Below, one piece after another: positions 2,963-45,645 of a DNA stretch of 64,000 bases. The DNA lies in contig CAWJKZ010000011.1 in assembly GCA_963843575.1 (NCBI GenBank), forward strand, positions 1 to 64,000, in the 5' to 3' direction. This DNA is from an uncultured Acidobacteriota bacterium (GTDB taxonomy: Bacteria; Acidobacteriota; UBA6911). Below the pieces are notes generated by a model that saw only the letters and a program-made list of their open reading frames with translations, made no database searches and was not told where the DNA came from. A program made the translations under genes and the position numbers. How positions within the stretch are numbered: position 1 is the stretch's first letter; every line of letters starts with the position of its first letter.

Positions 2963-3436
2963 CTAACTCCCTGTGGAACCCATACTCTCAGTGTACAGAG
3001 ATGTTTCAAACGGAGGGATCGTAATATTCGGAGCAATCGGGACAAGGAACCTGAACTGATAGTTACGAACAATGACTGATATTTTTTGGCTTAAGGGAAT
3101 GTGGCTGCTTGGTTCTTCTTCGATGGTGACCGGCGCTGGCACCTCAATCATGACTCTCGTAAGGCCGTTTAACAGCGGATTACCGGATGAGATATCCGGA
3201 TCACCATAGAGTACAATGTTCTGGGCCTTGGCCACATTGCCCGCGTCATAGGGGTGAACAACGGCCCACCGGGCTGCCGCGCGAGTATAATGTACGATAG
3301 TGTTGTAAGTGTAAAGTGCCCGCGCGAATTCCGTGATACCGAAGGTCAGGAAAAGGAATACCAGCAAGGTAAAGGCCATTTCGACCAGCGCCTGGCCCCT
3401 CTGATCGTTCATCGTGTCTTGTCCGCTGGCGATCAT
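2963..3436 (-). CDS. tadE: TadE/TadF-like Tad pseudopilin
   Basis: Prepilin motif QRG|QALVEMAF, then a hydrophobic helix and TRAAARWA. RBS GGAGGTGAGG precedes ATG 3436. Confidence 0.85.
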   Translation of the reverse strand: MIASGQDTMNDQRGQALVEMAFTLLVFLFLTFGITEFARALYTYNTIVHYTRAAARWAVVHPYDAGNVAKAQNIVLYGDPDISSGNPLLNGLTRVMIEVPAPVTIEEEPSSHIPLSQKISVIVRNYQFRFLVPIAPNITIPPFETSLYTESMGSTGS

Positions 3437-3446
3437 CCTCACCTCC

Positions 3447-3914
3447 TCAGAGACGCACATATCCCACGAAACGCATGGTGACCTTCGGCCTGAAGGTGGC
3501 CGACACCGACAACATACGACCAAACAGGGGGGAATAAGGATAGTTGGCGCTTACGGTCACGTAGAAACCACTTCCCAGCGGCGTGGCAGGGTTCGGCACA
3601 TCGACCTGAGCGGTTGTAAGGTCGGAGATGATTTTCGGTCCTGTGCCATTGATGTTTCCATAGACAACCAAGTTCCTTGTCCGGGTTATCGTTGTCGCAT
3701 CGACGGCTCCGGTTGATGATAATGCGGAATCCTTCGCCGAAAGGTATCGCGCAGCGTTCCTGACCGATTTGGTCAGGATATTGTAGGTGTAAAAAGCCCG
3801 GCCGAACTCGATGCCCCCTGTGAGCAAGAGTGCAAGCAACGGCAGCATCAGGGCGAACTCTACGATTTCAGCACCGTGCTGGTTCCGGAACAAACCGCTT
3901 TGGGTCATCTTCAT
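3447..3914 (-). CDS. tadE: TadE-like Tad pseudopilin
   Basis: QHG|AEIVEFALMLPLL...GIEFGR...VRNAARY. RBS GGAGG upstream. Confidence 0.88.
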   Translation of the reverse strand: MKMTQSGLFRNQHGAEIVEFALMLPLLALLLTGGIEFGRAFYTYNILTKSVRNAARYLSAKDSALSSTGAVDATTITRTRNLVVYGNINGTGPKIISDLTTAQVDVPNPATPLGSGFYVTVSANYPYSPLFGRMLSVSATFRPKVTMRFVGYVRL

Positions 3915-3953
3915 TGGTGTTTCGCCTCCCCCGACCCGCAAAGCCGCAAGAAA

Positions 3954-5087
3954 TCAGCGGAATAGAACGGGGCGGGTGATGCTGGCGACAGGGTTATTCG
4001 TGGGTTCACCATTAATATCACAACTGCCGACATACATCATGCAAATCTCGTCCGAGGGCGGATGAACGCCCGGGCGTACGCCCATGAAGAAACATCCGAA
4101 ACCGACAACAAAGTACTCCGATTTCGAACTTTGCGCGGGATCGTTCATGGCGACCCTGATTACTCGACGGAAATTAGTACCGCCCGTCAGGTACCCGCTC
4201 TGATAGGCTGCAAGGGATAAATACTCGGCTTGATCGGTGTCTTGAGCGTACCGGTCCTGAACAGCCTTGAGCCCGGCGTTACCCTTGTTTCCCGGCGTAG
4301 CATCGAGTGAGGGCAAACTGACATCTATTGCCACGCAGTTGCCAGTCGAGCATCCATTGAGAAGAGTCGACCGGATGCAGGGCGTGTTGTTTCCGCAGGC
4401 ACACGGGTCAGCCCAGCCAAAATTGCCTTGGCTGGGCCCGGCAAAGTAGATGTCGCAGTCGGTCACCGTCGAGGTGCCCCCAGAGAGTCTCAATGAGTAG
4501 ATTCCTCCGGGAACAAACCCGAAATTCACCGGGTCATTTAAGTCCCTCGCTGCGGGGGAGAAGGGGTCCACACTACCGATGCAGGTCGGCTTATCCCGAC
4601 CTGCGACCGCTTCCGCGCCCAGATTCAGTATGCTGGGGACACCTGGCAGGATCTTGCCAAAAAACACGGCCGATGGCTGAGTAGCGGGAATCCTTACTTT
4701 CACGAATCTGATCCCGGTTGGCACTCCCTGAGCAGTTGCTGCGTCCACATACGTTCCGTCGAGTGAATCGGAATAGGACACCCAAGTGCCGTCAATAGTC
4801 AGGTCGGCAGAATTGAATTCGAACTTGTTCCTCAATGGGCTGCCAGAATCTGTCGCGCGCAACTGAGCCTCGGCGATGCCCGTCGACATTCCGTTCAGCG
4901 CCGACGCACCGGCAAGTGCACAGGCGTCGGCGATGTTCTGGAGTTGAGATTTGTTGATATAGGCATGGCCCAGGTCGACGGCGAGACCGATCATCCCGAT
5001 CAGAATGACGAGCGAGAGAGCGACGAAAACGATGATCGTGCCGCTCTCCCCTTTATTGAGGCTCATTTTTCTGCTTTTGACTGACAT
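3954..5087 (-). CDS. tadG: TadG-like Tad pilus assembly protein with Cys-rich C-terminal domain
   Basis: ESG|TIIVFVAL...GLAVDLG...QLQNIADACALAGA is the Tad N-terminal domain signature. Confidence 0.85.
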   Translation of the reverse strand: MSVKSRKMSLNKGESGTIIVFVALSLVILIGMIGLAVDLGHAYINKSQLQNIADACALAGASALNGMSTGIAEAQLRATDSGSPLRNKFEFNSADLTIDGTWVSYSDSLDGTYVDAATAQGVPTGIRFVKVRIPATQPSAVFFGKILPGVPSILNLGAEAVAGRDKPTCIGSVDPFSPAARDLNDPVNFGFVPGGIYSLRLSGGTSTVTDCDIYFAGPSQGNFGWADPCACGNNTPCIRSTLLNGCSTGNCVAIDVSLPSLDATPGNKGNAGLKAVQDRYAQDTDQAEYLSLAAYQSGYLTGGTNFRRVIRVAMNDPAQSSKSEYFVVGFGCFFMGVRPGVHPPSDEICMMYVGSCDINGEPTNNPVASITRPVLFR

Positions 5088-5238
5088 AGCACCACTCCCC
5101 GGGATCTCCAATCGCCTGTACCAATGGTCATTAGGGGACCTTCGCAGCAATTGTATCAGCTCGAAACTTGGGTTATTTTATCATAACCGTGGCCGCAGAG
5201 TTTGCTAATTTCCTTAGGGCTTGGTAAATCCTCGCTGC

Positions 5239-6369
5239 ATGAAAACCAACCGAAAGGCAGTCTGGATTCTCGTCCTGGGACTCCTGGTTTTCAACCTGGT
5301 TCGTGGCGCCATCTCTCTCCACTTGGTTCCGCTAAGTGACTTTGTCGAGTACTGGGCGGCTGGGCGGGTGTTTCTGAGCGGCGGGAACCCATACAGCGCT
5401 CAGGAGTTGCTCGCGGTCCAGGGATCCCTAGGTTGGGTGGAACGGGAACCCCTGATGATGTGGAACCCCCCGTGGACGCTGCCCCTCGTGGCCCCCCTCG
5501 CGCTCATGCCCTACTGGGTCGCGCGCGGCGTCTGGTTCCTGCTCAGCTTGGTTCTGCTTTTTGCCTGCGCCGACTTCCTATGGAGTCTCTACGGAGGTCC
5601 CGGGGAGGGCCGGTGGTTGGCCTGGCTCACGACGCTCTTTTTCGTCCCCGATGCCATGGCGCTATATCTCGGCCAGATTGCGCCTCTCATCCTGGCGGGA
5701 TTGGCCGGCTTCCTGTTTTGTCTCAGACACGGCAGGCCCTGGCTCGCCGGCGCATGCCTGTTCCTGCTCGCGCTCAAGCCGCACCTTCTGTACCTTTTCT
5801 GGATTCTCCTGCTGCTGTGGGTCTTCAAGGAACGCCAGTGGAAAGTGGCAGCAGGCCTCTCGCTTACCGGGCTGGCGCTGGTCATTGGGGCCGCGGCCGT
5901 CAACCGGGCGGTCATCATCCAATACTTGGAGGCACTCGGTTCGGATCAGGGACCGCTGAGGTGGCAGACACCCAGCCTTGGGACCGCACTCCGAATGGCC
6001 GTAAACAACGACGGCGGGTTTCTGGCGCTTTTGCCGATGCTCTGCGGCCTGGCCGCGGTAGCTTGGTTGTGGTGCCGCTGGAAGGAGCGGTTCGACTGGC
6101 GAGAGCGCCTGCCCGGGGTCGTGCTGCTCTCGGTTGTCACCACCAGCTTCAGCTGGACTTTCGATTGGGTCCTGCTGCTTCCGGCGGTGATCCTGATGAT
6201 GGCCCAATTTGTCGTCTGTCCCCGGCGCAACTGGTGGCTCCTGGCCGGCTTAGTCCTTGTCCAGGGAGGCCTATTCCTGCAACTCACGATCGTCTCGAAC
6301 TACTTCTACACCGTCTGGTTTCCCCCGGCGATCGCGATACTGTTCGGAATGCGCCGTAGCGCGTCTTGA
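5239..6369 (+). CDS. GT87/DUF2029-like membrane glycosyltransferase (GT-C)
   Basis: DFVEYWAAGR...GGNPY, WNPPW, LGQ and LKPH motifs; polytopic membrane protein. Confidence 0.85.
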   Translation: MKTNRKAVWILVLGLLVFNLVRGAISLHLVPLSDFVEYWAAGRVFLSGGNPYSAQELLAVQGSLGWVEREPLMMWNPPWTLPLVAPLALMPYWVARGVWFLLSLVLLFACADFLWSLYGGPGEGRWLAWLTTLFFVPDAMALYLGQIAPLILAGLAGFLFCLRHGRPWLAGACLFLLALKPHLLYLFWILLLLWVFKERQWKVAAGLSLTGLALVIGAAAVNRAVIIQYLEALGSDQGPLRWQTPSLGTALRMAVNNDGGFLALLPMLCGLAAVAWLWCRWKERFDWRERLPGVVLLSVVTTSFSWTFDWVLLLPAVILMMAQFVVCPRRNWWLLAGLVLVQGGLFLQLTIVSNYFYTVWFPPAIAILFGMRRSAS

Positions 6370-6586: not shown

Positions 6587-7768
6587 GTGACATCCAAACG
6601 TTCACAGGTCCCGCATTTCCTCTTGATCTGCCTGATCCTGGTCTATGGCATGTACGTCATTCGGCGTCTGGAACCTGGTTTCACCTTCTCGAAATACGAT
6701 CCGGGCTGGATGATCAGCACCGTCATCTCGATCGCCGAGGATGGAGACCTCGACCTGCGCAACCAGCTAAACAACGATCCCAACGAAGCCGCCGACCAGA
6801 CCGCCCAAGGCTCCAGAGGGGAATGGTACCCGCTTCATGAATACTTGATGGCATTCGCTACTGTCCCATTCTACATGCTATTCGGCGTCACGGGCTGCTT
6901 GATCTTCAATGTCTTGGCAGTGATTCTCCTGATGATGCTCTTGTTCCGGTTGTGCTCGCGCCACGTGGACCAGATGACCGCGTTCGTGGCGGTCTGTTTG
7001 ACGGCCTTTCCAACCCTGTTCCTGGACTATACCTACAGCTATTCCCTGGACGTGTTTGGCGCATTCCTCATCGTGGCGGCGTATTGTAGCGCGGTTGGAG
7101 GAAACCTTCTGCTGGGGGGACTGGTGTGGGGGATCGCGGTCGCAGCTCGAATGCCCAACGCGATCACCGCACCAGCCTTCCTTGCCTATATAGTGTTGGA
7201 CGGCATCCTCATGCCGGGGAGTGCCGGCGCCTCTCGGATGAAGGGATTGTCTCGGCGGCTTGCCTCCTTCGCAGCAGGCGTTTTGCCGCCCGTAGTCTGC
7301 ATCGGGCTGGCAAACTGGTACATGTTCGGCAGCCCACTGGCAACCGGCTACAGCCGTTGGCAACATTTCGACCAGGGCCGGGTGCTGATCAGGCCGCAGG
7401 AACACGCCTTTGGAGCGTCTGTGTTACACCAGCTGCCTTCCCTGATGTTCGACCCGAAGACGGGGGTTTTCTTCGGTGCTCCTCTACTGCTGCTGGCCTT
7501 GTGCTTTGGTCTCCGTCCGATGTGGCAGGGATCGAAGAGCGAGGCCGTGCTGTTCGGCCTGATCAGTCTGTCGACGGTGATTTTGTACGCGATGTATTCT
7601 CTGGCGGTCCCGGGTTACCCCGGCAACAGGTATCTGATGCCCATGACGGCACTTGCAGCCGTCCCGCTGAGCCTGGCGGTGAAGGAAGTGTTCACTGGAC
7701 CAGCAGGGGACGCGCACGCTGGAGACGACGCCGTTGGAATTGCTGATCAACGGAAGTACAGGACGTGA
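6587..7768 (+). CDS. GT-C-type membrane glycosyltransferase (ArnT/PMT-like)
   Basis: N-terminal TM, then an acidic loop (YDPG..SIAEDGDLDL), multiple TMs and a late NRYLMP motif. Confidence 0.65.
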   Translation: MTSKRSQVPHFLLICLILVYGMYVIRRLEPGFTFSKYDPGWMISTVISIAEDGDLDLRNQLNNDPNEAADQTAQGSRGEWYPLHEYLMAFATVPFYMLFGVTGCLIFNVLAVILLMMLLFRLCSRHVDQMTAFVAVCLTAFPTLFLDYTYSYSLDVFGAFLIVAAYCSAVGGNLLLGGLVWGIAVAARMPNAITAPAFLAYIVLDGILMPGSAGASRMKGLSRRLASFAAGVLPPVVCIGLANWYMFGSPLATGYSRWQHFDQGRVLIRPQEHAFGASVLHQLPSLMFDPKTGVFFGAPLLLLALCFGLRPMWQGSKSEAVLFGLISLSTVILYAMYSLAVPGYPGNRYLMPMTALAAVPLSLAVKEVFTGPAGDAHAGDDAVGIADQRKYRT

Positions 7769-8628
7769 GGGGCTATGCGGCCGTCGAGGTAGGCGCACGG
7801 GCCGCATTCCATCTCGTACGATCCGACAATCCGGCTAACCTCCCGGGCCACGTCTTTTGACTCATCTGCATAGTGTTCCGTGGAAATTGCCAGCCGTGGC
7901 TTGAACCGGCGAAGGCTGCCGGACGCGCCCTTGAGTGCCTTGATCTCCGCACCCTCGATGTCCATCTTGATAAAGTCGACCTTGTTCAGGTTGAGCTCCG
8001 AGACGAGGTTGTCGATGGTGGTCAGCTGGATCATCTCTGACGGCGAGCCGGCGGTATCCAGGACAGTTCCGCCCGAGATTGGCAGTGACGCCTCTTTGTC
8101 CCAGACGCCTTTCCTAAAGAGGAGTACTGTGCCGTCCGCGATCTCCTGGCTGAAGTTCCGTTCGAGGCATGGCCATTTCTCCGGAGCCGGTTCGACGGCA
8201 ACGATGCGCGCTGCCCCCATTTCCAGCGCGAGGCGGGTAAAGGTGCCGATGTCGGCACCGCAGTCCAATACGACATCCCCTGGCTGCACGCCCGACTTCC
8301 CCGACCCGTACACGTGCATCTCCTGCTCCGCCAGCACTCCCCACATCAGTCCCACGCTCGTGTCGGGCATCCAGAACGGCCCGCGCGGCGTGGACCAGAG
8401 CTGGATGCTGCCGTTCCGCTCGAGGAGGCGGCTGCGGATCTCCATGCCCTTCTCGATCTGCATGTAAGCCACCTTCCAGTCGCCGTATTCCCATGTCTGA
8501 CGCAGCGTGCATTCGCTGCGACGCACGAGGTACATCCCGACGAGGAGCAGCTTGTGCAGCCGGTAAAGAGCGAAAACCTCCACGACCAAGCTGAGGACGA
8601 TAACAGACCAGATCAGCTTTTTTTTCAT
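7747..8628 (-). CDS. FkbM-family methyltransferase with N-terminal membrane anchor
   Basis: VVLDCGADIG, AVEP, TTIDNLV, IKMDIEGAE; C-terminus ECGPC...RIAPHVLYFR. Confidence 0.9.
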   Translation of the reverse strand: MKKKLIWSVIVLSLVVEVFALYRLHKLLLVGMYLVRRSECTLRQTWEYGDWKVAYMQIEKGMEIRSRLLERNGSIQLWSTPRGPFWMPDTSVGLMWGVLAEQEMHVYGSGKSGVQPGDVVLDCGADIGTFTRLALEMGAARIVAVEPAPEKWPCLERNFSQEIADGTVLLFRKGVWDKEASLPISGGTVLDTAGSPSEMIQLTTIDNLVSELNLNKVDFIKMDIEGAEIKALKGASGSLRRFKPRLAISTEHYADESKDVAREVSRIVGSYEMECGPCAYLDGRIAPHVLYFR

Positions 8629-8775: not shown

Positions 8776-10863
8776 TTATTTCAGAATCTGAAAGAGGTTG
8801 CTGTAGTCGTCGGTCCAGAGACTTATCGATTTGACCTTCTCCACGGGTGCGAGCCGAGCTGCGATTCCCGGTTGCCCCCAAAGACCGGCATCGCGGCTCA
8901 TGATGGCCCACACCGATGGGAGGCTCAGGTCGTCGTACCGGTCGTTCCGTATCAGTTCCGCACGCAGCCCGAAATGCTCCGCCAGCCTATGGACAACAGG
9001 CCACAGGTCGAGGTGCTTGTTGGTGATATTTACCGTAACAATCCCCTCTGGACGCATGTGCGCCAGGTAAAGCTCGAACGCTTCCCGGGTCAGCAGATGA
9101 ATGGGGACGGAGTCGCTGTTGAAGGCGTCAATCACGAGCAAATCGAAATTCTGCGACTGCGCGTGCTCCAATTCCGATGCGAGCGATATCCGGGCGTCGC
9201 CCGGCACGATCTCGACGGCAGCCCTCGAGTCCCGTACAAACGTAAAGAACCCGCCAGTGCCTTCGGCCAGACGGATTACATCGGGATTGATCTCGTAGAT
9301 GCGGAAAGTATCGTGTGGCGTGCCGTATGCCGTGAGGGTTCCGATGCCGAGCCCGAGCATTCCGATACGCAAGCCGGACGCACGCCGGGGGTGATGGCGC
9401 ACTACCAGCCCTATCCCGCTGTCGCGGGTATAATAGGCGGTCGGTTCCCGCCGCCTCTCCTCCTGCTGGAGCTGGAACCCATGATTAGTGGCGCCATGCA
9501 GCAGCGTGTAGGCTCGCCCGCCCGGATTGCCGGCGCCGGTCTCGCGAACCCGCAGCACGCCGTAGAAGTTTCGGTAGGCCGCCAGCGTTTCTCTCGACAG
9601 CAGGTTGATGTAGACGAAGAAAAAGAAACCGATGAAGGCGATGCCGCCGACAAGCAGTGCGACCGTCAGGAAGGCGGGTCGCCGGGCTCCTCCCGCCGGC
9701 TTCTTGAAGTTGCTGATGAGCAGAAGCACCCAGCAGAGGAGCAGCCCAAGCGGCAGTTCCCAGAAACCGGAAAAAACCCGCGGAGCCACCAGTGCCACGA
9801 ACGCCCCCCCCAACGCCCCCCCCGTGGAAACTGTGAGGTAAAACGAGGTGAGGAAGCGCGGGTGCGGCCTGATCATGTAGAGCTCGCCATGACAGATCAT
9901 GCAGCAGATGAAGAACGCCACCGAGTAGGCGGTGATCTGCGTCACGATGCCAAGGGCGAAGTCTTGGACCAAGACCCAGCAGAAGATACCGCTCGAGACC
10001 ACGAGCGCTGAAATGTACCAGCCGCGCGCATACCAACGCACATTCGAAAAGCAGAGGATGAACGACAGAAGGTAGAGAACGAGCGGCAGGATCCAGAGGA
10101 AAGGGACGACCGCGACCTCCTGGCAGATCTGGCGCGTTGTGGCAAGCAGCAGCAGGGAGGCGCAGCCAGACAGCGCGATCCACATCAGATGATCCGCGCA
10201 TAACGGTTGCGGGGGAGCGTCCGCGGATCGGTCTTCATTCGCCAGCCCGTCACCCTGCCGGCGCAGCAGGCGGCTCGCCCCGCAACCCATCGACGCAACG
10301 AAGAGGAGGAAGACCAATGACCAGGCGACTCCCTGGGTCCTGAGTGTCAAGGCCGGCTCAACCAGGAAGGGATAGCTGATTAGTCCAATGAGGGACCCGG
10401 CGTTGGACCAGGCATAAAGTGCATATGGGGATCGCCCCGGCTTCGCGCGGCTGTACCACGACTGGATTAAGGGGCTGGTCGTCGCCAGGGTGAAATAGGG
10501 GATACCCACCGAAAACAGCAGGATCGTGAGCAGCGACCGCACCGGCATACCCGAGATAGACGCGAGCGAGACGGCCGGCGGCATGACTCGGGACTGCCGC
10601 GCATACCAGGCGGCAAACAGCAAGGAGACCGATACCCCAAGAAGGACGAGGTGTAGGGATGCCTGCCGCCGCGGTTTCAGCGATGAGGAGAGCCAGTATG
10701 CGTAGCCATACCCCGCCAGTAACAAGACCTGGAAAAAGAGGAGGCTGGTTGACCAAACCGCCGGTGTGCCGCCGAACCATGGCAGGATGTATCTGCCGAC
10801 TATCGGCTGTATCTGAAAGATCAGGAAAGCGGACAGGAAGCTGACCCAGATATAATAAAACAT
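8776..10863 (-). CDS. Fused multi-TM/spermidine synthase-like SAM-fold protein
   Basis: AFLIFQIQP..G..ILPWFGG, YALYAWSNAGSLIGL, CHGEL, LHGATNHG, LGLGIGT, YEINP, GDAR, DAFNSD, WTDDYSNL. Confidence 0.88.
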   Translation of the reverse strand: MFYYIWVSFLSAFLIFQIQPIVGRYILPWFGGTPAVWSTSLLFFQVLLLAGYGYAYWLSSSLKPRRQASLHLVLLGVSVSLLFAAWYARQSRVMPPAVSLASISGMPVRSLLTILLFSVGIPYFTLATTSPLIQSWYSRAKPGRSPYALYAWSNAGSLIGLISYPFLVEPALTLRTQGVAWSLVFLLFVASMGCGASRLLRRQGDGLANEDRSADAPPQPLCADHLMWIALSGCASLLLLATTRQICQEVAVVPFLWILPLVLYLLSFILCFSNVRWYARGWYISALVVSSGIFCWVLVQDFALGIVTQITAYSVAFFICCMICHGELYMIRPHPRFLTSFYLTVSTGGALGGAFVALVAPRVFSGFWELPLGLLLCWVLLLISNFKKPAGGARRPAFLTVALLVGGIAFIGFFFFVYINLLSRETLAAYRNFYGVLRVRETGAGNPGGRAYTLLHGATNHGFQLQQEERRREPTAYYTRDSGIGLVVRHHPRRASGLRIGMLGLGIGTLTAYGTPHDTFRIYEINPDVIRLAEGTGGFFTFVRDSRAAVEIVPGDARISLASELEHAQSQNFDLLVIDAFNSDSVPIHLLTREAFELYLAHMRPEGIVTVNITNKHLDLWPVVHRLAEHFGLRAELIRNDRYDDLSLPSVWAIMSRDAGLWGQPGIAARLAPVEKVKSISLWTDDYSNLFQILK

Positions 10864-11191
10864 GCCCCGGTTCTCCGTCGTTCTCTTATCGCCGCCCCAT
10901 GCCCGGCAGACAAGAGAAAACGTCACGACCGTGCCATCCCCAATCCCGCTGATCGGCGCCGCGAGGCAGACGTCGTTCGTGCCTGTCAAAAAAGGGTCGA
11001 CGGCTATTCGCAGGAGAGTGCCCTAATTCTGTGCGACAATCTTTGGCGGAAGCCAGGCCAGGGCAGGGCTGGAGTGCCCATGTCCTCGCAGGATTTCTCA
11101 ATTGCCTCGGCGGCAGGAAGAATCGGGCAGAGCATTCGTCTGGGACGAGGCAAACCCAGCTAGCCTAGCCTAGCTACCAGGAGAGACGAGG

Positions 11192-35564: not shown

Positions 35565-36749
35565 ATGACCCAACCGCAGATCACAGTTGCATTGATCGCG
35601 CCCTCCGCCGAAATTCGCGACTCGCTGACGCGTCAGATCGAAGCGACGCAGCTGGCGACGACAAAGACGGCCATCGATACGTACTGCGCCGTCGAAGATG
35701 ACTACTCTACCCAGACCATAATCGAGGCGCGCCCGGATCTCATCATCGTCGATCTGCAAGATCAGAAGGCGGGGATCAAGTCGATCTTCGTGTTGCACGC
35801 GGTGCTGCCGGAGGTGTGGATCAGCGCGAGCTGCGCTTCGAACGACCCGCAGTTGATCATCGAAGCCATGCAGGCCGGGGCGCGCGAGTTCCTGCCGCGG
35901 CCTGTGTCGGCCCGCACCCTGAGCCTGGCGTTCGGCCGCTTCCTGGATGAAAAACAGCGGCACCGCGCCGAAAGGACTCGCGGGAAGCTATATTGCGTGA
36001 CGGCCGCCAAGGGAGGTTCGGGGGCGACGTCGGTCGCCACGAACCTGGCGATCACGGTGGCGGAAATGCCCGATACCCGTGTCGCCCTGGTCGATCTGAA
36101 CAGCCCCGTTGGCGACGTGGCGGCGTACCTGAATGTGAAGGCTCAATACACGGTTTCCGATGCTCTGGCGGCGGCGCCGCGTCTCGATCCCGTGCTCCTG
36201 GATACCTTCATGAGCAAGGCGCACGGTATCTCTCTGCTGGCTGGACCCAAGAAGTACCAGCCCGGTCCCGGCGCCGGCTCTCCCGCCCTGGCGAAGCTAC
36301 TTCGTGTCGTCGCCCAGACCTTCACGCACGTATTTATCGATGTGCCGTCGTCGTTCGAACAGGACTACCTCCAGGTGGTTACGGACATGAGCGAGGCGGT
36401 GCTCGTCGTACTGACGCCTGAACTACCTGCGCTCTGGAGGACTCACCGCCTCGTACTGTTCCTCTCAGGCGCCGGTTGTGCGGACCGCCTGCGCCTCATC
36501 GTCAACCGGGACAGCAGGCGTTACGAACTGAGCGAACGCGAGATTACCAGGATCCTAAGTCATCCGATCTACTGGAGACTTCCCAACAACTACGGATCCG
36601 CCATCCAGGCCATCAACAGCGGCAAACCGATCGTGGCCGTGAATCACTCTGGCCTGTCGAAGAGTTATCAGCGGCTTGCGCACCACCTGACCGGCATGGC
36701 GGTGCCGACGAAACGGCGCGGCCTGATGGGTCTATTCCGAGGTAAGTAA
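35565..36749 (+). CDS. cpaE: CpaE/TadZ receiver-like plus MinD-like ATPase
   Basis: [10 protein letters not shown] pseudo-receiver; AKGGSGAT deviant Walker A. Confidence 0.9.
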
Positions 36750-36751
36750 GA

Positions 36752-38038
<1,287 letters not shown>

Positions 38039-38057
38039 GTTTCGTTGAGAGGCGCCC

Positions 38058-39032
38058 GTGAATCTCTATGTTCTAATTCTCCTGATATTTCTCGTGACGC
38101 TCGCGCTCTTGATCAGCGGTCTGTATTTTGTGATAGAAGCGCCGGCCGAGAAGAAGAAGCTGCGGGCTCGAATTCTCTCGACCCAGGACCTGATCAGCCT
38201 CGACTCCGACAACCGCGAAACACAGCTTCTGCGCTCGGAACTGCTCAGCAACGTGCCGCTCTTCAACCAGCTGCTGGCCGGCCTCCCAGGGGTGGAACGC
38301 ATCAGCCTTTTTATCCAGCAATCGGCCATGGAAATTACGGTTGGGATGCTGGTGTTCCTCTCGTTGCTGCTCGCATTGTTTGTGTTTTTGGCGGCGCTCC
38401 TGGCGAACCTGCCCGTGCTCCTGGCTGCCCTGCTCGGGACCATCGGCGGGTCGATTCCGACGCTAGTCATCGCGGTGAAACGGCAAAGACGATTTATGCG
38501 GTTCGAGGAGATTTTCCCCGACGCGATCGACCTTTTGGCCCGCGCGGTCCGGGCGGGCCACGCCTTCACGACCGGCCTCGATATCATCAGTAAGGAGCTT
38601 CCGTCCCCTGTCTCGGACGAATTCCGGCGCACCTACGAGCAGCAGAATCTGGGGTTGCCCCTGCGCGACTCTTTCCTGAACCTGTCCCGGCGCATGCCCC
38701 TTACGGACGTGCGTATCTTCGTAACCGCCCTGACTATCCAGCGTGAGACCGGGGGCAACCTGGCCGAGATTCTCGACAATTTGTCGCGCATCATCCGCGA
38801 GCGCTTCAAACTGATGCGACAGATCCGCACCCACACCGCCCAGGGCAGGCTTTCAATGTATATGCTCGTTGCCATCCCGCCGCTGATGGGGCTGGCGCTA
38901 TTTATTCTGAATCGCGAGTACATCATGCGCCTCTTTACGGATCCCCTAGGCCTCAAATTCCTCACCGTCGGGGTGATCATGCAAGTCATTGGATATTTCG
39001 TAATCCGAAAGGTCATTCAGCCGCGGTTTTAG
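38058..39032 (+). CDS. tadB: TadB platform protein
   Basis: FPDAIDLLARAVRAGH, IQRETGGNLAEIL, TAQGRLS. Confidence 0.93.
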   Translation: MNLYVLILLIFLVTLALLISGLYFVIEAPAEKKKLRARILSTQDLISLDSDNRETQLLRSELLSNVPLFNQLLAGLPGVERISLFIQQSAMEITVGMLVFLSLLLALFVFLAALLANLPVLLAALLGTIGGSIPTLVIAVKRQRRFMRFEEIFPDAIDLLARAVRAGHAFTTGLDIISKELPSPVSDEFRRTYEQQNLGLPLRDSFLNLSRRMPLTDVRIFVTALTIQRETGGNLAEILDNLSRIIRERFKLMRQIRTHTAQGRLSMYMLVAIPPLMGLALFILNREYIMRLFTDPLGLKFLTVGVIMQVIGYFVIRKVIQPRF

Positions 39033-39041
39033 GAGAAAGTC

Positions 39042-39953
39042 ATGGATCTAACCGTCATTCTCGCCGTCCTGGGAGCCTTGCTCTTCCTGACGGTGTTCAG
39101 CCTGGGTTATAGCCTGCTGGCTGGACCTCAAAATCTCGGTCGGAGGGTCAGCGACGCGGAAACGACACCCTCACGGTTCGACTGGCTGCGGGTGATCAGG
39201 AGTTCCGAAAAGGTCTTTAAACCCCTGGGCGGGATGATACCGCGCTCACCGGAAGAAATGTCCAGGCAGGAGCAGCGATTTGTCCGCGCGGGCATCCGGC
39301 GGCGGGATGCACCCCTGCTGTTCTACGGCATTAAAATCGTGCTGGCTGTTCTGCTGCTCGTTGTGTTCGTGGCGTTGGGTTATTTCCGGACAAATCCGGT
39401 TCTCTTCCTGCTGCTCCCGATATTGCTGGGAGCGATGGTTCCGGATCTCTGGTTGAACCATGCTATCAGGAGCCGCAAGGACCGGTTGCAGATGGCGCTG
39501 CCGGACATGCTGGACTTGGCCGTGGTTTGCGTGGAGGCGGGCCTGGGGATGGACCAGTCTCTCATGCGCATCGGGCAGGAACTGAACACGATGTACCCGG
39601 ACCTGAGCGAGGAATTGAATCTCTATAGCCTGGAGGTGAACGCCGGCAGAAAGCGGGCCGAAGCCCTCCGCAACCTCGGGGCTCGAACGGACGTCGATGA
39701 TCTGAAGTCCTTTGTCGCGGTCCTCATCCAGACCGATCGTTTCGGCACCAGCGTCGCCCAGTCGCTCCGCGTCTTCTCGGAAACGCTTCGCACCAAACGC
39801 CGGCAGCGTGCGGAAGAGCACGCGGCCAAGATGAGCATAAAAATGCTTCCCCCGCTGGTGTTCTTCATCTTCCCGGCCATCCTTATTGTGATCCTCGGCC
39901 CGGCGGTCATCGCAATTATCCGGATATTGCTTCCCGGTCTTTCAGGCAGGTAG
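39042..39953 (+). CDS. tadC: TadC platform protein
   Basis: LPDMLDL..VCVEAGLG, QTDRFGTSVA..LR, RAEEHAAK...K..PL.FFIFP. Confidence 0.93.
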   Translation: MDLTVILAVLGALLFLTVFSLGYSLLAGPQNLGRRVSDAETTPSRFDWLRVIRSSEKVFKPLGGMIPRSPEEMSRQEQRFVRAGIRRRDAPLLFYGIKIVLAVLLLVVFVALGYFRTNPVLFLLLPILLGAMVPDLWLNHAIRSRKDRLQMALPDMLDLAVVCVEAGLGMDQSLMRIGQELNTMYPDLSEELNLYSLEVNAGRKRAEALRNLGARTDVDDLKSFVAVLIQTDRFGTSVAQSLRVFSETLRTKRRQRAEEHAAKMSIKMLPPLVFFIFPAILIVILGPAVIAIIRILLPGLSGR

Positions 39954-40078: not shown

Positions 40079-40443
40079 CCGGCTTCGCCGCGTTCAACCG
40101 CACCAGACGCGTGCTGGTTGCGGCCGACGTGGAAGTTGCCCGTACAGTGTGGAAGCGTGTGAGAGGCCTGATGGGCCGGGCAGCCAGGGATTTTCCCGAA
40201 GGGAAGGGGTTCTGGATCGTCCCCTCCGAAGGGATACACACGCTGGGCATGAGGTTTCCTATCGATGTCTGTTACCTCGATAGGAATGGGCAAATTGTAA
40301 GAGCGTATCACCGTTTGCGCCCCTTCAGATTTGCAGCTGTCCTGTGGCGGGCGCACAGCGTCCTGGAATTGCCGGCGGGGGTGCTCCTGCGCACCTCCAC
40401 CGAGGTTGGCGACACACTGGAAATCAAACCGATCGTGACCTAG
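40075..40443 (+). CDS. DUF192 family protein
   Basis: VEVART.WKR.RGLMGR, IHTLGMRFPIDV, SVLELPAG. Confidence 0.88.
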   Translation: MTGFAAFNRTRRVLVAADVEVARTVWKRVRGLMGRAARDFPEGKGFWIVPSEGIHTLGMRFPIDVCYLDRNGQIVRAYHRLRPFRFAAVLWRAHSVLELPAGVLLRTSTEVGDTLEIKPIVT

Positions 40444-40457
40444 GCGGAGGGGATGAA

Positions 40458-41693
40458 GTGCGACACCGGATCCGGGTTGCGGCTGGCATCTGCCTGCTTG
40501 CCTTGGCCGGTCACGGGTGCCTGAAACGCACCCAACCGGTACCGAACTCAAGCACGCGGACTGCCAATCCTCCGTCGGATACCGATTCCGCCCGCACTGT
40601 TCTGAAGATATCCAGCGGCCCGCCGGTGGACCACGATGCTGCGCTCGCTGGCCTGTACCAGCGCGAACCCAGACTCCTGGAGCTGGCAGGGCGGCTCGAG
40701 GCCAATCCGGCGGACACCGAGGCGATGCAGACCCTGGCCGAGGCCTACTTGCGGGATCAGTTGTACCTCCAGGCACAGAGGCTCTTCCAGCGGCGGCAAC
40801 TGATCGAACCGGATAATGCCGCGCCGTATCTGGGCCTCGCATCAGTCTGGGACGCCATGGGCGACTGGGATGTGGCGTTGGAGCAAGCGAAGCGGGCGGT
40901 CGCCCTGGAACCGAAGTCCCCGCAGTCTCTTGAACTCCTCGGGCGGATTCAACTGCACCGGAAGGAGTACGACGCGGCGCTCTCGTCCTTCCGGGCTGCG
41001 CTCGAGATAGCTCCCGGGAGCGGCGCGCTTCACGCCAACACCGGTTACGTCCACATGCTCCGATCCGAATGGGAAGCCGCCCGGCCTTACCTGCAACGGG
41101 CAGTCGAGATCGACGGCTCCGTGCCCGAAACGCGTAACAATCTAGGCGTCGTTCTCGGCCGGCTCGGAGACGCCGAAGGGGCCCTGGGCCAGTTCCGGGC
41201 CGTGAGCGACGAGGCTTCTGCCCACAATAACCTGGGCGCGGTTTACCTCTCAATGCGGGATTGGGCCAAGGCACAGGAGGAGTTCCGCAAGGCCCTTGCC
41301 TGCAACCCGCAACATGCGAAGGCCCGGTCGAACCTGCAGGAGGCGGGTTCCCATCTCCCCACAAGGCCCGCACCCTCGCCGCCGGCCCACGTGGCTACGT
41401 CCTCCGGGTACTCGATCCAGGTTTTTGCCCTGCGGGACGAAAGCACGGCACGCTCCGCGGCCAAAGCGTTGGAGAAGGCGGGCGTAGTGACGACCGTGGA
41501 ACGAACGGACCTTGACGAGGGCACCTGGTACCGTGGCAGGGTGTATGGGTACGAAACCCTCAGCTCGGCTCTGAAGACGGCGAAGAAGCTGTCCATGGCC
41601 GGCTTGATCAAAAAATATTGGATCGTTCCTCCGGATGAGAAATCAACGGTTGGCTCTTCGAGACCCTCAGAGTCCTCAGAGCCTTCGAGGTGA
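40458..41693 (+). CDS. TPR-repeat protein with C-terminal SPOR domain, probable lipoprotein (TadD-like)
   Basis: Signal peptide ending in Cys (LLALAGHGC); TPRs (HANTG, RNNLG, HNNLG); SPOR-like YSIQVFA...WYRGRV. Confidence 0.78.
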   Translation: MRHRIRVAAGICLLALAGHGCLKRTQPVPNSSTRTANPPSDTDSARTVLKISSGPPVDHDAALAGLYQREPRLLELAGRLEANPADTEAMQTLAEAYLRDQLYLQAQRLFQRRQLIEPDNAAPYLGLASVWDAMGDWDVALEQAKRAVALEPKSPQSLELLGRIQLHRKEYDAALSSFRAALEIAPGSGALHANTGYVHMLRSEWEAARPYLQRAVEIDGSVPETRNNLGVVLGRLGDAEGALGQFRAVSDEASAHNNLGAVYLSMRDWAKAQEEFRKALACNPQHAKARSNLQEAGSHLPTRPAPSPPAHVATSSGYSIQVFALRDESTARSAAKALEKAGVVTTVERTDLDEGTWYRGRVYGYETLSSALKTAKKLSMAGLIKKYWIVPPDEKSTVGSSRPSESSEPSR

Positions 41694-41731
41694 GTTTTGT
41701 ACGTATGTTCCATTACTGACAGGTGACTTCA

Positions 41732-42424
41732 ATGAGAATGGCTCGATTCCTAATCCCGTCGCTTGCACTGGTATTGCTGGCTTCCTCCGGTTACGCCCAG
41801 GAAAAGAAATACCGGTTCGAGCTATTTGGCGGCGCCAGCTACCCCATCAAGAAGGAATTCCTCATCGGCCACCCGCAATCGTCGACTCCCATCAAAGGAC
41901 AACATGAGTTCTCCGCAGACGCACTGGGGGGTCTGAGGGTCGGGATCGACGGACGCCGGTACTGGGGACAGGACTATTCCTACAGCTATGGCTCCAACGC
42001 CAGCCGCATCGTGACGCCTTTCGGTCGATTCGCTTTCACCAACCGCGTCCACCAGGTTTCCACCAATATCCTCTTCTACCCGTGGAGCCTCGACAACAGG
42101 CACCTGTTCCCTTATGTGACCGGCGGTTTGGGCGCCTCTTTTGTCACGATCTCCCAGGAGACCATCACGCAGGCCCTCGACCCGCTGCGCGCCGGCATCG
42201 GCGCCATGAAGAGCGAGACGATCTTTGCGTTTAACGCGGGCGCCGGGGTGCGCATCCGGTTGAACGACCGATTCGGCGTCAGGCTGGATGCCCGGGATTA
42301 CATGAGCAGGGCCCTGCGCTACGGGCTGCCCAAGACCTCCGACGACCCGAATGCCGCGATCCTGCCGGTCAGCGGAGTCTTTCACCAGCTCGTCGGCTCG
42401 TTCGGGCTGGTCATACACTTCTAA
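41732..42424 (+). CDS. Outer-membrane beta-barrel protein (OmpA-TM-like)
   Basis: Signal peptide, PYVTGGLG, FNAGAGV, VRLDARDY and C-terminal Phe. Confidence 0.8.
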   Translation: MRMARFLIPSLALVLLASSGYAQEKKYRFELFGGASYPIKKEFLIGHPQSSTPIKGQHEFSADALGGLRVGIDGRRYWGQDYSYSYGSNASRIVTPFGRFAFTNRVHQVSTNILFYPWSLDNRHLFPYVTGGLGASFVTISQETITQALDPLRAGIGAMKSETIFAFNAGAGVRIRLNDRFGVRLDARDYMSRALRYGLPKTSDDPNAAILPVSGVFHQLVGSFGLVIHF

Positions 42425-42504
42425 TACGGTGAAAGATCGTGCTGCATTCCTCCTGGATCACAAGGAGTTCGAACATGTGCCATCGGATCGGTCGGGGCAG
42501 ATCA

Positions 42505-45500
42505 ATGCGTTATGACAGGAACAAGCGCGCCCTTCTCTTCGTCTGCCTGCTGTGTTGCTTCGCCGCCCTGCTCTGGAGCCAGTCGGCCGGGACCAACTCT
42601 AGTTTCTATTTCCCGCGGATAGCCGCCTCGCCGGCCGCCGACGCCGGGATTGCGCTGTTCAACCCGACTTCGACGGATGCCTCCGTGTCGCTGGCTCTGT
42701 CCGCTGCGGATGGACAGGCCATTGGCGCACCGGTCACCGTCGCGGTGCCGCCGATCGGGCAGGTCGCGAGAACCGCGGGCCAGATTTTCGGGACCGCTGC
42801 AATCGCCGACGCCGCGCTTCAGATCAGCAGCTCGACGACAGGGTTGGTCGCCTACTACCAGACGTTCGATGCGCGCGGCACGTTCATGGACGGCACGACC
42901 GCGTCCGAGACCGCCCTGGACCTGATATTTCCCGTGATGCCGCAGTCTGCCGCCGACGGAACGCGGATCGAGCTGGTGAACAGGCAGAGCAGGAACACGA
43001 TCGCCCAGCTTAGCCTCTGGAAGACCGATGGCACGCTCCTCGGGGAGACGTCGGTTCAATTGCTGAAATCGACGAGACGAAGCGAGACTCTGAAAGGCCT
43101 GTTCCCGTCGGTGGACTTTTCATCCGCCTCTCACCTCACGGCGACTTCCCGGTCCGGAAGCATCTTTCTCGAGCCCCAGCCCATTACGGCAACCAGCATT
43201 CTCGCAGGACTGTCTCGATCAGCCGGCTCGGCTGATGTGGTGGCGCTCAACGCGCTCCCGCTGACCCAGACGTTCAATGCCGGGGCGATTCCCTATTTCC
43301 GGGTGGGCATGCGATACTTCTCCACCCTTTCGATCGCCAATGTCGAGTCGGCTGCCGTCGACGTCACCGTGACGGCCATTGGCAACGACGGCTCCTCTTT
43401 GGCGACCCGGAAGGTATCGGTCCCGGGGCACGGCGGGATCCGGCAGGCGCTGGAGAGCTTCCTCAGTCCGCTCGCCGGCGATGCATCCGGATGGCTGCTC
43501 GTCCAGGCTTCGGGCAGAATCACCGCGAACCTCCTCTACGGACGCCACGACGGCGGGGCGGTCTCCGCCGTCCCGATGCAGAAGACGCCCCAGTATCAGT
43601 TCGTGTTTCCGCAGGCAGTGCAGGGTTCGGGCTACTCGACCGAAATCAGCCTTGCCAACCCTGGTCCGTATACGGCTCCTGTGGATCTTCACGTAATTGG
43701 CGGCGATGGGACAACGTTGGCCGGAGCCCAGATCGTTCTGACGCCTGGCAAGAGAATCTCGCAAAATCTGGACCAGTACATGCCGGAGCTGGCGGGGACG
43801 ACCATCCAAGGATTCGTGTCGGTGCGGTCAATCGAGCCGCTCTTCGGCACCGCGTCCATCTGGTCCGATTCCGGGACCGTCCTGTCGAACTTCACACCGC
43901 AGCCGGTACCCGCTTCCTATGTGCCGGCGCCGCTCAAGATCTTCGCGGTAACCGGCGTCGTGACCCTGAACGGACGACCGGCAAACGATTTTCCCGTGGT
44001 GCTGTCGGGGCCAGAAGGCAGGGTGGTTCGGACCGCCGCGGACGGGAGCTACGTCATCGCAGGCCTGCCAGCCGGCCGGTACTCCATGACCGTCGACCAG
44101 TATGGGTTCCAGTTCGTTCCCGCCCAGGTCAATTTCGAGCTCAGCACCGGCAGCCGGCGCCAGAACTTCGAGGGTTTCACCGCCGCCAACGGCCTCGTGG
44201 TCAAGCCCGCCGCAATTCCGGCCGGCAGCCCCGATGTGACGGTGGCGGTTTACGGCAACGGCTTCAACTCGACGTCCGCTGCCTACGTCGGGGTGGCGCG
44301 ACTTGAAACCAGACTAGTCGACGCCACGCAGTTGAGCGCGGTCATTCCCGCCTATCTCGTGGAGACTGCGAAGAAATTCGAGCTCTACGTCGTAACGGAC
44401 GGCACCCGCGTGAGCGATCCGTTCCCAATGGTCGCATTCATCGACAAGCCCGATTTGGGCAGCGTGCTGACCTCACGTGAGATCGTCGAAGGTAGCCCCG
44501 AGGCAACCCTCACACTACAAGGATCGGGCTTCCTCGCCGACGCCGTCGTCAGGATCAACGGCCGCAGCGACGGGATCAGGATATCTTCGCTGAAGAGCGA
44601 CGAAATCGTCGCGGTAGTGCCGGCCGGATATTTCGAAACCGGGGGCATCTTCCCGGTGACGGTGGCGAACCCGTACCCGGCCAACGTCGAGTCGAACATC
44701 CAGCTGCTCACGGTCTATTTCCCGAGACCAGCGATCGAGTCGATCTCCCCCGCGGTGGTCCCGGAAAGGCTCGAAGACAGCGCCGGGCCGCTGAGCCTTG
44801 ACGTGCACGGCTACGGTTTCAGGCGCGGGGCCGTCGTCCTGGTTGACGACAAGCGGGTGGCGACGTACTCGTGCGAGGCGACGCGTTCCTGCTTCGCGGA
44901 TCACCTCGTCGCGACTATCGACGCAAGCCTGCTGCGCGCGTCCGGTTTCAAGAAGATCTCGGTGCTCAACCCGGATCCCTCCATTGCGCCGTCCCAGATC
45001 GCCATGCTTCGGGTCGAAAGCCTGCAGCCCACGATCACTTCGGTGTCGCCGGGGAGCGCCACCGTGCTCGGGCTGCCTCCTACCGTGATCGAGGAAGATG
45101 GGGAGGTCATCAAAATCTGGTACACGCTACCGGTCGTGATTTTCGGAACGAATTTCGACCCGAAAGCCGAGGTCCGCGCGGTTCGAGTCACCCCGCCGTC
45201 AGCCGAGGTGTCGGATTTTCAGAGTGCGCAGGTGATCAGCAGCACCCAGCTGGTCCTCCAGTTCAAGGTCACTTACCCCGACTCGGTCGGTCAATGGCAG
45301 GTACAGGTGAAAAACCCCCAACCCGGCGGAGGAATATCGGAACCGGCGTATTTCCTGATCACCGAAGGGTCGTTCGTCGCCAACCCGTTCCTCATTTCCG
45401 TGGTGCCCGACGCTGTTTCGGCGGGAGGCCCGGGGTTCACCCTGACGGTGAACGGTACGAATTTCCAATCGGGATCCCAGATCAACTGGTTCTCGACGCC

Positions 45501-45645
45501 GCTGGCGACGACGTTCGTCAGCGCGAATCAGCTCAGGGCGGAAGTGGCCGCCCCGCTTATCAAGACGCCCGGCAAGCGCCCGGTGACCGTGATTAACCCC
45601 GACAATGGAGGGACATCGAACGCTCTGTTTGTTCGAGTCGAATAG
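42505..45645 (+). CDS. Large secreted beta-sandwich protein with IPT/TIG-like repeats and a carboxypeptidase-regulatory-like domain
   Basis: Signal peptide; repeated FP...LxN units; TAADGSY..GLPAGRY; several P.I.S.SP...G.NF...V.NP repeats. Confidence 0.75.
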   Translation: MRYDRNKRALLFVCLLCCFAALLWSQSAGTNSSFYFPRIAASPAADAGIALFNPTSTDASVSLALSAADGQAIGAPVTVAVPPIGQVARTAGQIFGTAAIADAALQISSSTTGLVAYYQTFDARGTFMDGTTASETALDLIFPVMPQSAADGTRIELVNRQSRNTIAQLSLWKTDGTLLGETSVQLLKSTRRSETLKGLFPSVDFSSASHLTATSRSGSIFLEPQPITATSILAGLSRSAGSADVVALNALPLTQTFNAGAIPYFRVGMRYFSTLSIANVESAAVDVTVTAIGNDGSSLATRKVSVPGHGGIRQALESFLSPLAGDASGWLLVQASGRITANLLYGRHDGGAVSAVPMQKTPQYQFVFPQAVQGSGYSTEISLANPGPYTAPVDLHVIGGDGTTLAGAQIVLTPGKRISQNLDQYMPELAGTTIQGFVSVRSIEPLFGTASIWSDSGTVLSNFTPQPVPASYVPAPLKIFAVTGVVTLNGRPANDFPVVLSGPEGRVVRTAADGSYVIAGLPAGRYSMTVDQYGFQFVPAQVNFELSTGSRRQNFEGFTAANGLVVKPAAIPAGSPDVTVAVYGNGFNSTSAAYVGVARLETRLVDATQLSAVIPAYLVETAKKFELYVVTDGTRVSDPFPMVAFIDKPDLGSVLTSREIVEGSPEATLTLQGSGFLADAVVRINGRSDGIRISSLKSDEIVAVVPAGYFETGGIFPVTVANPYPANVESNIQLLTVYFPRPAIESISPAVVPERLEDSAGPLSLDVHGYGFRRGAVVLVDDKRVATYSCEATRSCFADHLVATIDASLLRASGFKKISVLNPDPSIAPSQIAMLRVESLQPTITSVSPGSATVLGLPPTVIEEDGEVIKIWYTLPVVIFGTNFDPKAEVRAVRVTPPSAEVSDFQSAQVISSTQLVLQFKVTYPDSVGQWQVQVKNPQPGGGISEPAYFLITEGSFVANPFLISVVPDAVSAGGPGFTLTVNGTNFQSGSQINWFSTPLATTFVSANQLRAEVAAPLIKTPGKRPVTVINPDNGGTSNALFVRVE

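Follow-up and report, generated by a model that had tools for sequence, protein, structure and literature searches.

The window analysed here, the whole stretch formed by the first 64 kb of contig C11 from an uncultured Acidobacteriota genome (6.68 Mb, 27 contigs, 88% complete; G000 in our survey of relatives), contains a Tad pilus locus that is split by an island of 17 genes at 5221-31579 (26.4 kb). The island is bordered on one side by tadG-tadE-tadE (2963-5150, minus strand) and on the other by flp-flp-cpaB...tadC (31796-39953, plus strand). Ten of its genes encode polytopic membrane proteins; the other seven encode four FkbM methyltransferases, a class-I methyltransferase, an MFS/spermidine-synthase-like fusion and an epimerase, and there is almost nothing else. 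The genetic coupling of such GT-C glycosyltransferase clusters to Tad loci is well supported by the comparison of related genomes. We propose, with about as much reason for belief as for doubt, that the island is a variable cassette for glycan assembly and decoration, which acts in the periplasm, is functionally coupled to the Tad pilus and decorates Tad pilus proteins.

The gene map was made by open reading frame (ORF) calling, Pfam and NCBIfam scans, and six-frame family searches of the whole genome. An earlier note on this DNA had placed the island between a leftward tadG-E-E and a rightward flp-flp-cpaB, and this layout matches our map; its counts of four FkbM proteins, one other methyltransferase, one MFS/spermidine-synthase-like fusion and one epimerase were also correct by the Pfam and NCBIfam scans. 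Among the polytopic proteins three belong to GT87, four are of PMT_2 type at or near the Pfam cut-off, two gave sub-threshold GT-C matches and one had no match. The cut-offs are 25 bits for PF09594 (GT87), 26.1 bits for PF13231 (PMT_2) and 22.7 bits for PF05050 (FkbM). Seven of the ten polytopic proteins reached or passed the Pfam cut-off, and so did all four FkbM proteins.

GT87_1, a PimE-like GT-C, is located beside tadG (5221-6369, plus strand; PF09594 73.8 bits). GT87_2 is located at 27279-28505 (minus strand; 68.5 bits). GT87_3 (30215-31579, minus strand; 78.3 bits) is divergent from flp1 and lies 217 bases from its start; the same adjacency of GT-C and pilin genes was found in G001, a genome of the same genus, and in G047. 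The PMT_2-like proteins are GTC_4 (12996-14579, minus strand; PF13231 33.1 bits), which is also ArnT-like, GTC_6 (20795-22567, minus strand; 27.1 bits), GTC_8 (28530-30218, minus strand; 52.0 bits) and the borderline GTC_5 (18493-20139, plus strand), with 24.1 bits by hmmscan and 28 bits by six-frame search against the cut-off of 26.1. Sub-threshold matches only were obtained for two proteins. The small GT-C-like GTC_2 (6587-7768, plus strand) gave 22.8 bits with PMT_2, E 3e-12 with NF047440 and a weak match (E 6.5e-6) with the hidden Markov model of the cluster-2 family described below; GTC_7 (24504-26264, minus strand), with eleven helices and a weakly AftB-like N-terminus, gave E 2.3e-6 and 26 bits with NF041481, whose cut-off is 1050. 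GTC_3 (11192-12553, plus strand; nine predicted helices) had no Pfam or NCBIfam match and belongs to a large unnamed family. The ten GT-C enzymes of the earlier note are therefore nine for which family evidence of some kind exists, sub-threshold matches included, and one, 11192-12553, that lacks any family match.

In the whole 6.68 Mb genome, all three strong GT87 matches and four of the five FkbM matches were found inside the island, and this clustering is far beyond chance. The sole RcpC gene of the genome adjoins the island.

To place the island among relatives, 137 genomes of the same class were surveyed with RcpC as marker and GT87 at E <= 1e-5, and genes within 15 kb on the same contig were counted as linked. 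RcpC was found in 41 genomes, GT87 in 71 and both in 31 (GT87 only 40, RcpC only 10, neither 56; odds ratio 4.3, kinship ignored). Of the 31 genomes with both, 11 have a GT87 gene linked to RcpC in this sense (G000, G001, G025, G047, G128, G132, G064, G066, G114, G118 and G122, from eight genera and five families), against about 0.45 expected by random placement; counting one event per family, p is about 1e-4. The layout varies and the linkage stays: GT87 is upstream and co-directional in G047, diverges from flp in both G000 and G001, and in G064, G066 and G118 stands behind the gene for another membrane protein, that of cluster 2. Orthologs of GT87_1 lie beside TadG in G001 and one two-component system away from TadG in G025. 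In G060, which has no RcpC, a decayed tad remnant (cpaF, tadB and tadC fragments) was found beside four GT87 genes. The earlier note had staked its reading on enrichment of such clusters beside tad genes, and enrichment was found both for GT87 near RcpC and for cluster 2, which adjoins flp or tad genes in 17 of the 22 genomes with a strong match.

These numbers also bear on the explanation that there is no functional link, and that the tad and glycosyltransferase genes just share a recombination-prone flexible region in which adjacency is inherited synteny. Transposases occur in or beside the clusters of G025, G060, G066, G067, G065, G003 and G114, the tadE end is rearranged between G000 and G001, and relatives are not independent samples. 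However, the linkage holds over five families while order, orientation and neighbours change, 11 linked genomes far exceed the random expectation even if each family is counted once, and no tRNA or integrase marks the island of the window. We consider this explanation very improbable.

Two further kinds of neighbour were observed at the edges of these clusters. Beside tad-linked GT-C clusters, many lineages have genes for a histidine kinase and a response regulator of OmpR type (L010:3929-6765, L015:926-3742, L016:3895-5621, L024:18698-19963, L026:10441-11124, L131:3782-4801 and L133:11204-14139), a two-component system that may regulate the module as a whole. Genus g23 has a gene for myo-inositol-1-phosphate synthase at the edge of a tad-linked GT87/DUF6798/PGA_cap cluster (L011:17328-18644, L018:1726-3045, L021:5404-6723 and L136:2-415), a neighbourhood reminiscent of phosphatidylinositol-mannoside chemistry.

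The content of the island differs between genomes, as the earlier note had expected; this was seen between G000 and G001 within one genus, and in G025, of another genus in the same family. The block on the flp side, GT87_3, GTC_8, GT87_2, Methyltransf_11 and the epimerase, is kept in G001 with 69-85% identity (GTC_8 75%, GT87_2 83%), and GT87_1 next to tadG is kept with 69% identity; the GTC_6 ortholog has 79%. In the middle of the G001 island GTC_3 and GTC_7 were not detected, and only two FkbM genes were found, with 52-61% identity to FkbM_2. The G001 island has as extras a CmcI-type O-methyltransferase and a 412-aa polytopic protein, both without counterpart in G000. The pseudopilins of the two genomes share 52-70% identity, against 90-95% for CpaB, CpaF and TadB. 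In G025, TadG, TadE and a two-component system are followed by more than 40 kb of genes that include GT87, PMT_2, three GT2, NeuB, DegT, epimerases, TylF and CmcI methyltransferases, a radical-SAM enzyme and transposases. A second block in G025, at a contig start and before flp, contains GT87, SpeE-like, Methyltransf_11 and MFS fusion genes. We also observed a further PMT_2-like GT-C gene downstream of the tad operon in the window (49375-50712); the matching place in G001 (L001:13141-15383) has a GT87-like gene and a methyltransferase fragment. The tad locus is flanked by GT-C genes on both sides, with variation there too.

A second family, cluster 2, is the closest neighbour of flp in the class. 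It is an unnamed family of about 500 aa with eight helices, whose members had no Pfam or NCBIfam match. A structure predicted from 13 sequences had a predicted local distance difference test score (pLDDT) of 83 overall, with the first 75 residues disordered. Its best Foldseek matches were the catalytic subunits of oligosaccharyltransferase (OST), namely STT3 (8age, E 4e-8), AglB and PglB, followed by the C-mannosyltransferase DPY19, AftA and ArnT. The model gives cluster 2 a predicted GT-C fold, nearest to that of enzymes which glycosylate proteins, and makes cluster 2 a candidate pilin glycosyltransferase.

Cluster 2 was found in 39 of the 137 genomes (E <= 1e-30), 27 of which also have RcpC; in 17 of these 27 the two genes are at most 15 kb apart (cluster 2 only 12, RcpC only 14, neither 84; odds ratio 13.5, kinship ignored). 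For strong matches (E <= 1e-120), 17 of 22 genomes have the gene beside flp or tad genes; G000 and G065 do not, and G016, G059 and G119 were left out. The gene stands directly against a pilin gene in many lineages and directly beside tadE in G001. Three genomes have it against flp without an RcpC match, G003, where two tadE genes and then transposases follow, and G024 and G123, in which contig ends interrupt the region. In G067 it is 3 kb from cpaC, across an insertion sequence.

In the host, the cluster-2 gene is not in the island but at C13:401278-402975 (L131:5278-6975). Its neighbours there are a histidine kinase, a response regulator, an AAA protein, a 239-aa GT2 and an epimerase, and they are orthologs of the genes flanking tadE in G001, where a GT2 and an epimerase likewise flank the locus. 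A rearrangement at the tadE end therefore separates G000 from G001. The region concerned is window 1-2963, compared with G001 L003/L004 and G000 C13:384717-402975; the window start has instead an ORF with a DruA domain. On C13 the cluster-2 gene is followed by type-IV-pilin-like genes (PilX_N and three N_methyl), and a second TadE-TadE-TadG(VWA) set was found 8 kb further on, at 410502-413169.

We might picture the proposed decoration of the Tad pilus as follows. Cytoplasmic enzymes, namely the island epimerase and a small GT2 encoded elsewhere in the genome, would make polyprenyl-phosphate sugars. After flipping, GT-C enzymes in series, with one linkage each, would assemble O-linked glycans on the periplasmic side of the inner membrane; the set would include the three PimE-like GT87, at least six PMT_2/ArnT/AftB-like enzymes and the OST-like cluster 2 from contig C13. 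The most likely acceptors, before or during assembly, would be the Ser/Thr-rich exposed tail of the 41-residue Flp and/or the TadE/TadG pseudopilins. The membrane-anchored enzymes with an S-adenosylmethionine (SAM) fold would add methyl or related groups. Of the interpretation in the earlier note, the enrichment at tad loci and the variable content are observed here; Flp as acceptor, O-methylation of the sugars, and pressure from phages or predators are kept as suggestions. In our own reading the donor type, the periplasmic site, the identity of the acceptor and the methylation of sugars are what we infer.

Several observations weigh against this reading. In the class, 40 of the 71 genomes with GT87 have no RcpC. 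A wider scan for the GT87_1 subfamily gave 77 loci (Acidobacteriota, Anaerolineae, Gemmataceae, Binatia and others, many on short contigs), and tad genes were found in the flank of eight of them (L034, L037, L039, L045, L048, L050, L054 and L100) and not in that of the other 69; therefore the enzyme families have other substrates and are not pilus-specific as families. The linkage counts are not independent, as relatives share synteny, and the cluster-2 gene of the host is outside the island. No polyprenyl-phosphate sugar synthase (GT2) or flippase was found in the island by the Pfam and NCBIfam scans. Ten enzymes are much glycan for a 41-residue pilin, and a Caulobacter Tad pilus is described without glycan density in the available text of PMC10710030. 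The Ser/Thr fraction of the Flp tail is 0.30 at 17 GT87-linked loci and 0.21 at 14 others (naive p 0.002), but when any GT-C gene within 15 kb is counted as linkage the values are 0.28 (28 loci) and 0.23 (10 loci), with p 0.09. The contrast is suggestive under the first grouping and not under the second, which is fairer, and we do not count Ser/Thr richness of the tail, a proxy for acceptor sites, as evidence.

Part of this evidence would fit an island that makes a lipid-anchored or secreted glycoconjugate, such as a lipoglycan like lipomannan (LM) or lipoarabinomannan (LAM), a glycolipid like the phosphatidylinositol mannosides, or an adhesive polysaccharide, which would be co-inherited and co-regulated with Tad for attachment and not be placed on pilins. 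Multi-enzyme GT-C pathways make lipoglycans, with PimE, MptA-C, EmbC and AftA-D. The GT87 genes in genomes without RcpC, the 69 GT87_1 loci without tad genes and the inositol-1-phosphate synthase beside the g23 clusters point the same way, and the recurring two-component system fits co-regulation. On the other hand, the predicted fold of cluster 2, the closest neighbour of flp, is nearest to protein-glycosylating GT-C enzymes, its gene is directly against the pilin gene in many lineages, and no Wzx/Wzy, ABC or Wza export machinery was seen in the scans of the island. We regard such a glycoconjugate as possible but rather unlikely.

A general periplasmic O-glycosylation of proteins, parked at the tad locus and serving many envelope proteins, such as the 1068-aa CoaZ/TIG protein that closes the tad operon, would leave the pilins as at most one target. 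The combination of PMT_2 and GT87 enzymes has the logic of actinobacterial general O-mannosylation, as far as that is described in the available part of PMC12757957; the large repeat protein is kept at the operon end in G001 and G025, and the PMT_2-like gene at 49375-50712 would be one more enzyme of the kind. However, a general system has no need to track tad or to adjoin flp, as cluster 2 does with its odds ratio of 13.5 for RcpC, and variation of the island within one genus is unusual for a housekeeping system. This explanation seems improbable to us.

The six SAM-fold enzymes of the island are encoded at 7747-8628 (FkbM_1, minus strand; PF05050 63.6 bits, TIGR01444 83.2 bits), 14650-15612 (FkbM_2, minus strand; 77.9 bits, first found only by the six-frame search), 15979-16968 (FkbM_3, minus strand; 85 bits), 17368-18360 (FkbM_4, plus strand; 68.2 bits, TIGR01444 102.4 bits), 26358-27254 (class-I methyltransferase of Methyltransf_11, minus strand; PF08241 72.9 bits) and 8776-10989 (MFS/spermidine-synthase-fold fusion, minus strand; 695 aa in the called form, NF037959 48.6 bits, cut-off 40). 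The four FkbM proteins and the Methyltransf_11 protein each have one N-terminal hydrophobic helix (residues 4-22 in FkbM_1, 21-39 in FkbM_2 and 41-59 in FkbM_4). The FkbM, CmcI, TylF and Methyltransf_11 proteins of the G001 and G025 islands likewise have such a helix, the exceptions being two Methyltransf_23 proteins and one shorter homolog. Among 120 homologs of FkbM_3, 98 have the N-terminal helix, and the more positive flank is on the N side in 71, on the C side in 8 and equal in 19. By the positive-inside rule, this bias would put the catalytic domain of FkbM in the periplasm. The flanks of the helix in the Methyltransf_11 protein have charges of +3 (N side) and -2 (C side). The only clearly cytoplasmic enzyme of the island is the NAD-dependent sugar epimerase/dehydratase (23380-24453, plus strand; PF01370 127.2 bits).

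The AlphaFold model of the MFS fusion (32 sequences, pLDDT 87.4) contains twelve MFS helices, a 13th helix and then a domain of SpeE fold. Its Foldseek matches were SpeE structures (template modelling score on the target 0.55-0.58) and MFS transporters. The loops on the side of the N-terminus carry 18 lysine and arginine residues and those on the opposite side 5, and the SpeE-like domain is therefore predicted to be placed outside. From the charge bias in their sequences, all six SAM-fold enzymes are predicted to be membrane-anchored and to have their catalytic domains on the periplasmic side. An alternative topology that could also hold is an anchor with its N-terminus outside and a domain that stays in the cytoplasm and works on lipid-linked sugars. 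The glycine loop of the fusion, G-L-G-I-G-T, has no acidic residue; an acidic residue in this loop is part of the canonical motif by which spermidine synthase binds decarboxylated SAM. The sole sequence-level PDB match of the fusion was 3gjy, an uncharacterised 'probable' enzyme (E 0.003). NF037959, 'fused MFS/spermidine synthase', is an annotation family of which we know no characterised member. The protein at 8776-10989 passes its cut-off and shows the MFS-SpeE architecture, and here the fusion sits among GT-C enzymes and anchored methyltransferases. Literature searches returned no paper for the phrase 'periplasmic methyltransferase' and none on 'fused MFS' with 'spermidine synthase'. Should the SAM-fold enzymes face the periplasm, they would point to SAM-dependent chemistry outside the bacterial cytoplasm, and to a candidate transporter for it.

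Taking all parts together, we might speculate on a Golgi-like extracytoplasmic line of glyco-methylation. In it the GT-C enzymes would assemble a glycan on Tad pilus proteins where the inner membrane faces the periplasm, the six SAM-fold enzymes, including the SpeE-like domain on its 13th helix, would act on this glycan in the periplasm, and the MFS module would deliver SAM or a SAM-derived donor across the membrane, with the OST/DPY19-like cluster 2 as the pilin-specific initiating enzyme of the class. As a whole, this picture is doubtful.

Pilin or surface glycosylation by GT-C enzymes is known as a kind, and the Tad-linked set of GT-C enzymes and methyltransferases is undescribed as far as searched. 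The nearest likeness is TfpW, a GT-C enzyme encoded beside pilA, which arabinosylates the pilin of Pseudomonas aeruginosa (bioRxiv 10.1101/2020.04.19.049825, in the text available); glycosylation of the group IV type IVa pilin protects against pilus-specific phages (10.1101/2020.04.19.049825 and 10.1101/150227, as far as their accessible text goes). The likeness lies in a GT-C gene adjacent to a pilin gene, and the donor of TfpW is presumably a polyprenyl-phosphate sugar, used on the periplasmic side of the membrane. The TfpW system is one enzyme and one sugar on a type IVa pilin with a globular head, whereas the island has ten polytopic enzymes of several families and six SAM-fold enzymes, and a 41-residue Tad/Flp pilin. 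No homologs of the D-arabinofuranose donor families (DprE1, DprE2 and the PRPP-transferase) were found among the window ORFs scanned.

In actinobacterial O-mannosylation (Ppm1, PMT of GT39 and PimE of GT87), PMT starts and PimE elongates O-mannose on secreted proteins, both in the periplasm and from polyprenyl-phosphate mannose (PMC12757957, available part). The island differs in having PF13231 (PMT_2) and not the PMT family PF02366, many more enzymes, a link to a pilus locus in a Gram-negative phylum, and methyltransferases attached. Three-component systems consist of a GT2 synthase, a GtrA-type flippase and a GT-C enzyme and serve extracytoplasmic glycan modification, one sugar being added by the GT-C enzyme from a lipid-phosphate donor outside the cytoplasm (PMC11127046, in the portion available). 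As in these systems, small GT2 genes recur beside the related clusters of G001, G024, G025 and G128, and in the host the 239-aa GT2 ortholog and an epimerase stand by cluster 2 on C13. Unlike them, the island itself has no GT2 and no flippase, and the acceptors of three-component systems are polysaccharides, not pilus loci. Flp glycosylation has been suggested for another bacterium by earlier work cited in the introduction of PMC12307814, of which a part was available. Our literature searches found no paper on a link between GT87 and pili or between an acidobacterial tad locus and glycosyltransferases, and a search on Flp pilin glycosylation and Tad found none on such an enzyme cluster. The island also resembles the mycobacterial LM/LAM pathway in its serial GT-C enzymes, GT87 included, and in its AftB-like and PMT_2-like members. 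In mycobacteria the LM/LAM genes are scattered, the acceptor is a phosphatidylinositol glycolipid, and no link to pili exists.

Very many bacteria colonise surfaces by means of Tad pili, and little is known of whether and how the small Flp subunits carry sugars. A recurrent and variable GT-C cassette by flp gives concrete candidate genes and predicts strain-specific pilus surfaces, which would bear on recognition by phages and predators and on adhesion in soil.

For the individual GT-C proteins, the GT87 profile matched the solved mannosyltransferase 9dm5 with E 2.7e-18. Asp86 of GT87_3, an acidic residue in the first outer loop, is invariant in an alignment of 16 sequences, and is probably the counterpart of the catalytic Asp in PimE. 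When GT87_3, GTC_8, GTC_7 and the MFS fusion were searched as single sequences against the PDB, no match was returned. A predicted complex of GT87_3 and Flp2 scored 0.01 in a run that had no controls, and we take it as no evidence either way. The family of GTC_3 has 5365 relatives, and none of the 38 scanned matched a glycosyltransferase family; its profile had no PDB match and gave hhalign probabilities of 1.3% and 23% against two GT-C profiles. Weak leads from the Atlas were DUF6056 and Glucos_trans_II, besides unnamed clusters.

GT87_1 and GT87_2 share 39% identity and the FkbM proteins 37-44%, and no BLASTP similarity was found among the PMT_2-like proteins of the island. The paralogs are therefore old and the island is a set of different enzymes, and we rejected a recent tandem amplification. 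A mobile island was rejected as well, since no tRNA, integrase or transposase was found in the island of the window. The GC content at third codon positions is only mildly lower in 14650-18360 and 23380-27254.

The Tad core set of the locus is complete by Pfam cut-offs (RcpC/CpaB, secretin, CpaE, CpaF ATPase, TadB, TadC and TadE/TadG). On the minus strand are two TadE-like pseudopilins at 2963-3523 (PF07811 47.1 bits; 70% identity to the G001 ortholog) and 3447-3941 (53 bits; 56%), and the TadG-like pseudopilin at 3954-5150 (PF13400 53.7 bits; 52%). The plus strand has cpaB(rcpC)-cpaC-cpaE-cpaF-tadB-tadC at 32988-39953 (PF16976, PF00263, response-regulator/ParA-type, PF00437 and two PF00482). 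The prepilin peptidase (TadV/CpaA; A24) is absent from the window, and its sole match in the genome is at C14:456881. The tad operon ends at 40344-45645 (plus strand) with a TPR-SPOR protein, an outer-membrane protein (OMP) beta-barrel and a 1068-aa repeat protein, identified by Pfam and NCBIfam, and this order is kept in G001 and G025. The repeat protein (42439-45645) contains CoaZ ('choice-of-anchor Z') repeats and a TIG domain, and could act as an adhesin or be another target of the glycosylation.

At the start of the window, a DruA (Druantia) Pfam domain was observed in the ORF at 1638-2777 (E 1.1e-42). A Druantia defence system was rejected there, as the DruA domain stands alone, with no PADLOC hit and no other Druantia genes before the contig start.

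The pilin genes flp1 (about 31796-31984) and flp2 (about 32380-32568), both on the plus strand, encode the motif ...ESG/QTIVEY..., which is the G/XXXXEY processing motif of Flp prepilins, and a hydrophobic helix. The flp2 prepilin has 62 aa and its mature form 41 aa, with 7 Ser/Thr in the last 19 residues. As assembled, flp1 has its leader in one frame and the pilin body in another, owing to one extra T in the T run near 31830. This frameshift may reflect an error in assembling the homopolymer or genuine on/off variation of the gene. Public sequencing runs contain only minor portions of the window. RNA-library contigs were also aligned to the window; they are weak evidence, with low depths and possible DNA in the libraries, and the uncovered parts of the island are uninformative. 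A contig of 270 nt over flp1 is without one letter at 31830, which would restore the frame, and one of 245 nt lies on 29321-29565. Contigs from two runs of one sediment study cover flp2 at 32367-32837 with 6 and 2 differences, and these are the deepest of all RNA-library contigs aligned to the window.

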